Shown here: positions 31,104-31,476 of the stretch, in pieces | Position numbering within the stretch: position 1 is the stretch's first letter | Layout of the letters: the number at the start of each line of letters is the position of its first letter | Notes under the pieces: generated by a model | What the model saw: the letters and a program-made list of their open reading frames with translations, nothing else | What the model was told of the DNA's origin: nothing | The model's database searches: none | Made by a program: the position numbers and the translations under genes | NCBI RefSeq assembly: GCF_024223415.1 | Contig: NZ_CP100500.1 | Source of the DNA: Escherichia coli | GTDB taxonomy: Bacteria; Pseudomonadota; Gammaproteobacteria; Enterobacterales; Enterobacteriaceae | Length of the DNA: 64,000 nucleotides | Reading direction: 5' to 3' (one strand)

Positions 31104-31476
31104 ATGCGTCTGGAATTTGTTTTGCCTTACCCGCCGCCGGTGAACACTTACTGGCACCGTCGTGGTGGTAAGTATTTTGTATCAAAAGCGGGGGGAACGT
31201 TATCGTCGTGATGTCAGGCTTATTGTTCGCCAGCAGCAACTGAGATTAAGGCTGACCGGAAGACTGGGTATAAAAATCATCGCAGACCCGCCAGACAACC
31301 GCCGCCGTGACCTGGACAACATACTGAAAGTACCGCTGGATGCGCTGACCCATGCGGGGCTGCTTATTGATGACGAACAGTTTGATGAAATTTATATCGT
31401 GCGTGGCGTGTCAGTACCTGACGGGCGTCTGGGAGTGAAGATTTACGAAATTACAGGTGGTAACAATGGCGCGTGA
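31104..31476 (+). pseudogene. rusA: RusA-like Holliday junction resolvase, frameshifted at a G6 run
   Basis: MRLEFVLPYPPPVNTYWHRRGGKYFVSKAG stops after the G-run at 31190..31195; the RusA-like remainder (ERYRRDVRLIV...DNRRRDLDNILKVPLDALTHAGLLIDDEQ...) continues in the +1 frame. Confidence 0.7.

Follow-up and report, generated by a model that had tools for sequence, protein, structure and literature searches.

In a 64,000-nt stretch of the Escherichia coli chromosome (contig NZ_CP100500.1 of assembly GCF_024223415.1; hereafter, the window), a gene resembling rusA is divided between two reading frames that meet at a run of six G. The question raised by this locus is whether the split reflects a sequencing error, an on/off switch, a recoding site from which full-length RusA is still made, or an inherited inactivating mutation. 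The preliminary description placed the break at a G6 run at 31190..31195 and assigned the catalytic region to the +1 frame, and we found both coordinates and sequence as described. The locus comprises the following features:

31091..31097, plus strand: Shine-Dalgarno motif AAGGAGG, separated by 6 nt from the rusA ATG that follows, identified by direct reading of the sequence.
31104..31476, plus strand: the entire rusA locus, a putative pseudogene of 373 nt, compared with 372 nt in the intact allele.
31104..31211, plus strand: N-terminal fragment ORF, encoding 30 native RusA residues followed by GTLSS and TGA.
31190..31195, plus strand: G6 homopolymer, where one nucleotide (+1) has been inserted; intact alleles have G5.
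31195..31476, plus strand: C-terminal part of RusA, 93 codons plus stop in the +1 frame, holding all catalytic residues.

From the ATG at 31104, frame 0 reads MRLEFVLPYPPPVNTYWHRRGGKYFVSKAG, continues with GTLSS and terminates at a TGA at 31209-31211, giving 35 codons in total. The +1 frame reads ERYRRDVRLIV...DNRRRDLDNILK...LIDDEQ..., includes the DNRRRDLDN segment and ends with the TGA at 31474-31476. The G run consists of exactly six bases, preceded by C and followed by A, and deletion of one G merges both frames into a single ORF of 123 aa. We take the ATG at 31104 to be the true start of rusA because the AAGGAGG Shine-Dalgarno motif sits directly upstream. For the C-terminal ORF, the gene-calling program chose GTG 31162 (104 aa), with TTG 31177 as an alternative start (99 aa). 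Inspection of the sequence 5′ of these two codons revealed no strong Shine-Dalgarno motif; TTG 31177 is preceded, at a distance of 8 nt, by a weak GGTGGT. An N-terminally shortened 99-aa protein initiated at this TTG is strictly conceivable; neither GTG 31162 nor TTG 31177 would give a product that contains the N-terminal strand or the flexible loop. A scan of 30800-32200 for promoters and terminators yielded nothing above the shuffled expectation.

With one G removed, the repaired ORF matched the Pfam RusA family (PF05866) at 54.8 bits over profile positions 1-123 of 124, the cut-off of this family being 22.8 bits. The C-terminal fragment alone scored 43.5 bits over profile positions 21-123, and the 35-aa N-terminal fragment alone gave no Pfam match. 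The repaired protein aligned without gaps to RusA of E. coli K-12 in the PDB (1Q8R; E=8e-19, more exactly 8.3e-19), and an ungapped alignment with K-12 RusA gave 38% identity over 113 residues (E=5e-25). For RusA, D70, D72, K76 and D90/D91, plus R69 and N73, have been reported to be critical (PMC1636454). R69, D70, D72, N73, K76, D90 and D91 are all conserved here, at query positions 68-75 and 89-90, the ungapped alignment shifting the numbering by one, and every one of them lies downstream of the frameshift. The N-terminal 30 residues correspond approximately to residues 2-31 of E. coli RusA, that is, to the first β-strand, the DNA-contacting turn and the flexible loop, and they supply one strand of the four-stranded RusA sheet. 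In RusA, the DNA-contacting turn spans residues 13-16, and the flexible loop, residues 15-28, has been proposed to enter the junction at its centre (PMC1636454). The window contains no uninterrupted ORF of ~120 aa joining the N-terminal strand and loop to the catalytic core, as the frame shifts after codon 30. The gene does occupy the expected nin-region position, directly upstream of the antiterminator gene Q. As read from its sequence, the locus is a RusA-family pseudogene rather than a functional member of the family.

The surroundings of the gene are those of a lambdoid prophage, which adjoins mlrA/yehV in the window. Bases 1-10500 are 100.0% identical, without gaps, to several complete E. 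coli genomes, identifying the window as E. coli chromosome. Directly adjacent to mlrA (yehV), on its 3′ side, is the prophage integrase (window 17083-17730 / 17805-19091), and the prophage of E. coli strain GF60, considered below, uses the identical site. On the 5′ side of rusA, the gene order is integrase, repressor region, DEAD-box helicase, toprim primase and a 286-aa protein; on its 3′ side, Q is followed by an OmpC-like porin gene on the opposite strand, three tRNAs, lysis genes, and lambda-like head and tail genes. The features immediately downstream are:

31466..31891, plus strand: antiterminator Q (Pfam Phage_antitermQ, 175 bits), overlapping the 3′ end of rusA by 11 nt.
32075-33178, minus strand: OmpC-like porin of 367 aa (Pfam Porin_1/Porin_4), between Q and the tRNA and lysis genes.
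33777-34009: three tRNA genes of the prophage, with anticodons CAT, TCT and TGT.

Since Q is preceded by a Shine-Dalgarno motif of its own, AGGTGG, a severe polar effect of the rusA lesion on Q need not follow. The porin resembles the nmpC/Lc type of lysogenic-conversion gene; its sequence differs by 0-1 nt between the prophages carrying G6 and GF60-type prophages, and by 222 nt from that of locus L015. At the spot equivalent to the three tRNA genes, GF60 carries tRNA-Ile and tRNA-Lys, so the tRNA cassette appears to be a mosaic hot spot. A sub-threshold, tmRNA-like match (20 bits) was also recorded at 34229-34287.

Among 5,426 complete E. coli genomes, only one, that of strain GF60, carries this rusA allele at an identity of at least 99%. 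Its copy (WP_089580981.1; NZ_CP172185.1, 2052740-2053111) is recorded as intact, under the annotation 'RusA family crossover junction endodeoxyribonuclease' (123 aa). Once one G is dropped from the window's copy, the two genes are identical at 372/372 nt, and the extra G is the sole difference between the two prophages across window 30986-31900. Like the window's prophage, that of GF60 possesses the toprim primase, the 286-aa protein, rusA, Q and the porin at the mlrA-side site, but the two diverge by ~2% elsewhere and differ in their immunity regions; rusA has G5 and forms a single 123-aa ORF in GF60, whereas it has G6 and is split in the window. We regard the two halves as one gene split by a 1-nt insertion, and not as chance neighbours, because the repaired ORF equals the intact GF60 rusA and yields a full Pfam RusA match. 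More distant homologs with ~80% nucleotide identity (strain 20AR1039, phage Evi and strain Z1323CEC0001) are likewise single ORFs, and they encode the SKAGERYRRDV segment as AAA GCC GGT GAG CGT, with no G run. The absence of a G run from these homologs indicates that the G5 tract is particular to this rusA allele and that G6 is a derived insertion. In the 'phages' collection, no close relative of the allele was found, the best match having ~82% identity over 42% of the query.

An exact-sequence look-up in a collection of 15 billion proteins placed the intact RusA protein on 234 contigs (496 index blocks). The truncated products were also present: the 104-aa C-terminal ORF on 26 contigs, the 99-aa form on 14 and a 104-aa variant on one, these ~40 contigs coming from independent assemblies of both isolates and metagenomes. 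One 99-aa pseudogene fragment is deposited at NCBI as 'holliday junction resolvase [Escherichia coli]' (SRA09286.1; P0012). All 14 truncated-product loci that we fetched have G6 (L002-L013, L036 and L037), and G5 was found in L001, L014-L022, L035 and L038-L040. Of the 14 G6 loci, four belong to NCBI assemblies, eight to public read sets assembled by Logan and two to ENA metagenome contigs. Two of the NCBI isolate assemblies, GCA_958336035.1 and GCA_900482235.1, have both G6 and a called truncated product; GCA_050224675.1 and GCA_023124105.1 also have G6, with no protein called there.

These records bear on the proposal that the true run is G5 and that systematic homopolymer miscalls produced both this break and a frameshift in the major capsid gene E. 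Some sequencing platforms are well known for indels in G runs, and the window does hold this second frameshift, whose truncated product has no record elsewhere. Against an artefact, G6 recurs in 14 independently assembled loci, always on one SNP haplotype, and one of them, L012, is identical to the window at 728/728 positions across the G6 site. Agreement with other assemblies is also free of gaps well beyond rusA, with 0 gaps over 20,315 nt of prophage in comparison with L002 and 0 net indels over 10,500 nt of chromosome in comparison with complete genomes. Combined, these ungapped stretches of ~30.8 kb include 48 homopolymer runs of at least six bases. These alignments give no indication of systematic homopolymer error in the window, and we have rejected that suggestion of the preliminary description; an artefactual G6 is exceedingly improbable. 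Because it is identical to the G6 haplotype of other samples, we consider the G6 run real in the window's genome. Resequencing had been proposed as a way to look for G5, and independently sequenced carriers of the G6 haplotype always have G6.

The capsid gene lesion does not follow the pattern expected of miscalled long runs either, as it is a change from GG to G.

44291-45330: major capsid gene E, with a 1-bp deletion at ~45190 that converts GTGGTGGCC into GTGGTGCC.

This deletion lies outside any long homopolymer and is separate from the rusA lesion. It truncates the product at 309 aa, and the repaired protein, of 342 aa, is identical to an intact capsid protein that is very common (722 index blocks). 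The exact look-up returned no other record of the 309-aa truncated form. A look-up centred on the portal gene returned only unrelated mosaic prophages, in all of which E is intact. The E lesion looks private to this genome, representing either a recent mutation or a local sequence error.

The window segment 27500-33800 was aligned with 18 loci, and seven more were added later via the neighbouring 286-aa protein, one of which (L034) duplicates the L005 record. The combination T29291/C29915 occurred in 11/11 G6 sequences and in 0/14 G5 sequences, all of which have C at 29291 and T at 29915. Over 27750-33250 (5.5 kb), any two G6 sequences differed at 0-4 sites, compared with 23-29 sites between G6 sequences and the nearest G5 sequences. 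Positions 28317, 29458 and 30765 are polymorphic within the G6 group, and these polymorphisms of its own indicate that the lineage diversified after the insertion. As read from this alignment, G6 is a single mutation that has been stably inherited. At the protein level, we found no marker unique to the G6 haplotype: the primase, Q and the porin are common to G5 prophages, and the 286-aa protein occurs in some G5 loci as well.

In L005/L034 (GCA_900482235.1, UDHK01000011.1), the G6 rusA-Q-porin module stands in a rearranged context, with a DnaB-type helicase upstream and two more DUF968-Q modules downstream, the first of them followed by a porin gene. This arrangement suggests recombination between resident lambdoid prophages.

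The same linkage bears on whether rusA is a phase-variable contingency locus, in which slipped-strand mispairing would alter the length of the G tract and switch RusA on and off. As in poly-G phase-variable genes, the tract lies within the coding region and its length sets the reading frame; the frameshift falls inside the homopolymer, and a single contraction from G6 to G5 would restore rusA exactly. Unlike in those genes, the tract measures only 6 nt and shows no length heterogeneity within the lineage. To our knowledge, the tracts of characterised phase-variable genes are longer than six G. Only two tract lengths, G5 and G6, were encountered, and the linked SNPs separate them perfectly. Within the G6 haplotype, no revertant was seen although the lineage has gained other polymorphisms, and the distant homologs lack any G run at this site. 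The in-frame product expected of a G8 tract was absent from the 15-billion-protein collection by exact look-up. Slip-strand switching, which the preliminary description had offered as a more speculative option, finds no support: G5 and G6 are partitioned between SNP backgrounds, and neither revertants nor other tract lengths were seen among the loci compared. We hold it to be very improbable.

Full-length RusA might still be made from the G6 allele through +1 ribosomal or transcriptional slippage. In the ribosomal version, Gly-tRNA would re-pair from GGG 31191-31193 to GGG 31192-31194, with GAA as the next codon, and such a +1 shift over G GGG G would give back the wild-type ...KAGERY... sequence without any change. 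The transcriptional slippage sites known to us are longer A/T runs. For the ribosomal route, the A-site codon in frame 0 is an ordinary GGA, neither a stop nor rare, and the predicted folding of the 80 nt downstream is no stronger than that of shuffled sequence (z = 0.40). A search of 30000-34500 against Rfam returned the three tRNAs and sub-threshold noise, with no element near the shift site. The split arrangement is, moreover, derived and confined to one haplotype, as GF60, 13 other G5 loci and the three ~80% homologs all have single ORFs. The PRFect paper does name 'RusA/RuvC' among genes 'known to contain a frameshift', but that statement cites only Sharples and Lloyd (1991), who identified ruvC, and provides no precedent for recoding of RusA. 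We judge recoding to be most unlikely. A programmed frameshift was rejected as a candidate, there being no downstream structure, no Rfam element, no slow or stop codon at the site, and no conservation of the arrangement.

A related proposal holds that the G6 allele is not fully dead, and that occasional +1 re-pairing or rare reversion from G6 to G5 regenerates wild-type RusA. A junction nuclease that is potentially toxic would then be kept at a very low or conditionally recoverable level, which would explain the persistence of the allele across strains. We consider this very doubtful.

We therefore favour, with a probability of roughly 0.9, the reading that rusA is here a true pseudogene, produced by a single inherited G5-to-G6 insertion in one lambdoid prophage lineage. 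Most plausibly, replication slippage added one G to the G5 tract of this particular rusA allele; the mutation occurred once, in one prophage lineage, and has been inherited since. Translation from the strong start at 31104 would stop after 35 codons, and the catalytic core, left in the +1 frame, would lack a good start signal as well as the N-terminal strand and the junction-centre loop. Given this early stop and the orphaned catalytic core, no functional RusA is expected. The loss of rusA would be nearly neutral and probably tolerated, since RusA is an optional module of the nin region. In four related prophages whose portal allele is identical to that of the window (L042, L045, L049 and L050), no rusA lies between the replication genes and Q. 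The early and nin regions of these four are entirely different from those of the window, which illustrates how freely the head module recombines with other early regions.

Seen in this way, the lesion does not differ in kind from the frameshift pseudogenes of resident or cryptic lambdoid prophages, in which an indel in a short homopolymer kills a non-essential gene and is inherited. The cryptic prophage DLP12 of K-12 offers a close comparison: its RusA (PDB 1Q8R, 2H8C/2H8E) shares the same critical residues, and its gene, also lambdoid, is located just upstream of Q. The DLP12 rusA gene is intact but transcriptionally quiescent, and an IS insertion is needed to activate it (PMC1636454). That gene is thus silent though intact, whereas the rusA of the window is structurally broken by the frameshift. 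Decay has also affected other parts of related prophages. The tail genes of GF60 carry IS3 and IS21 insertions, and L009 (Logan SRR29490181), a member of the G6 lineage, has an 11-bp deletion in Q at the equivalent of 31784-31794, which reduces the product to 114 aa and represents further decay of the rusA-Q module in that sample. In contrast to general cases of prophage decay, all late genes of the window other than E are full-length ORFs. The idea of a decaying prophage, also put forward in the preliminary description, consequently holds insofar as a real, inherited inactivating mutation has struck an accessory gene; its supposed connection with the E frameshift is weak.

The rusA lesion is an ordinary feature of an already-understood type, and its significance beyond correct annotation is small. 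With no systematic homopolymer error in the window, other frame breaks there have to be judged individually; if the E deletion is true, the prophage cannot build capsids. The correct label for the locus is rusA pseudogene (frameshift, G5 to G6), and not two hypothetical ORFs or, as some deposited records have it, a 99- or 104-aa 'Holliday junction resolvase'. For this prophage haplotype, the G6 allele provides a convenient lineage marker.
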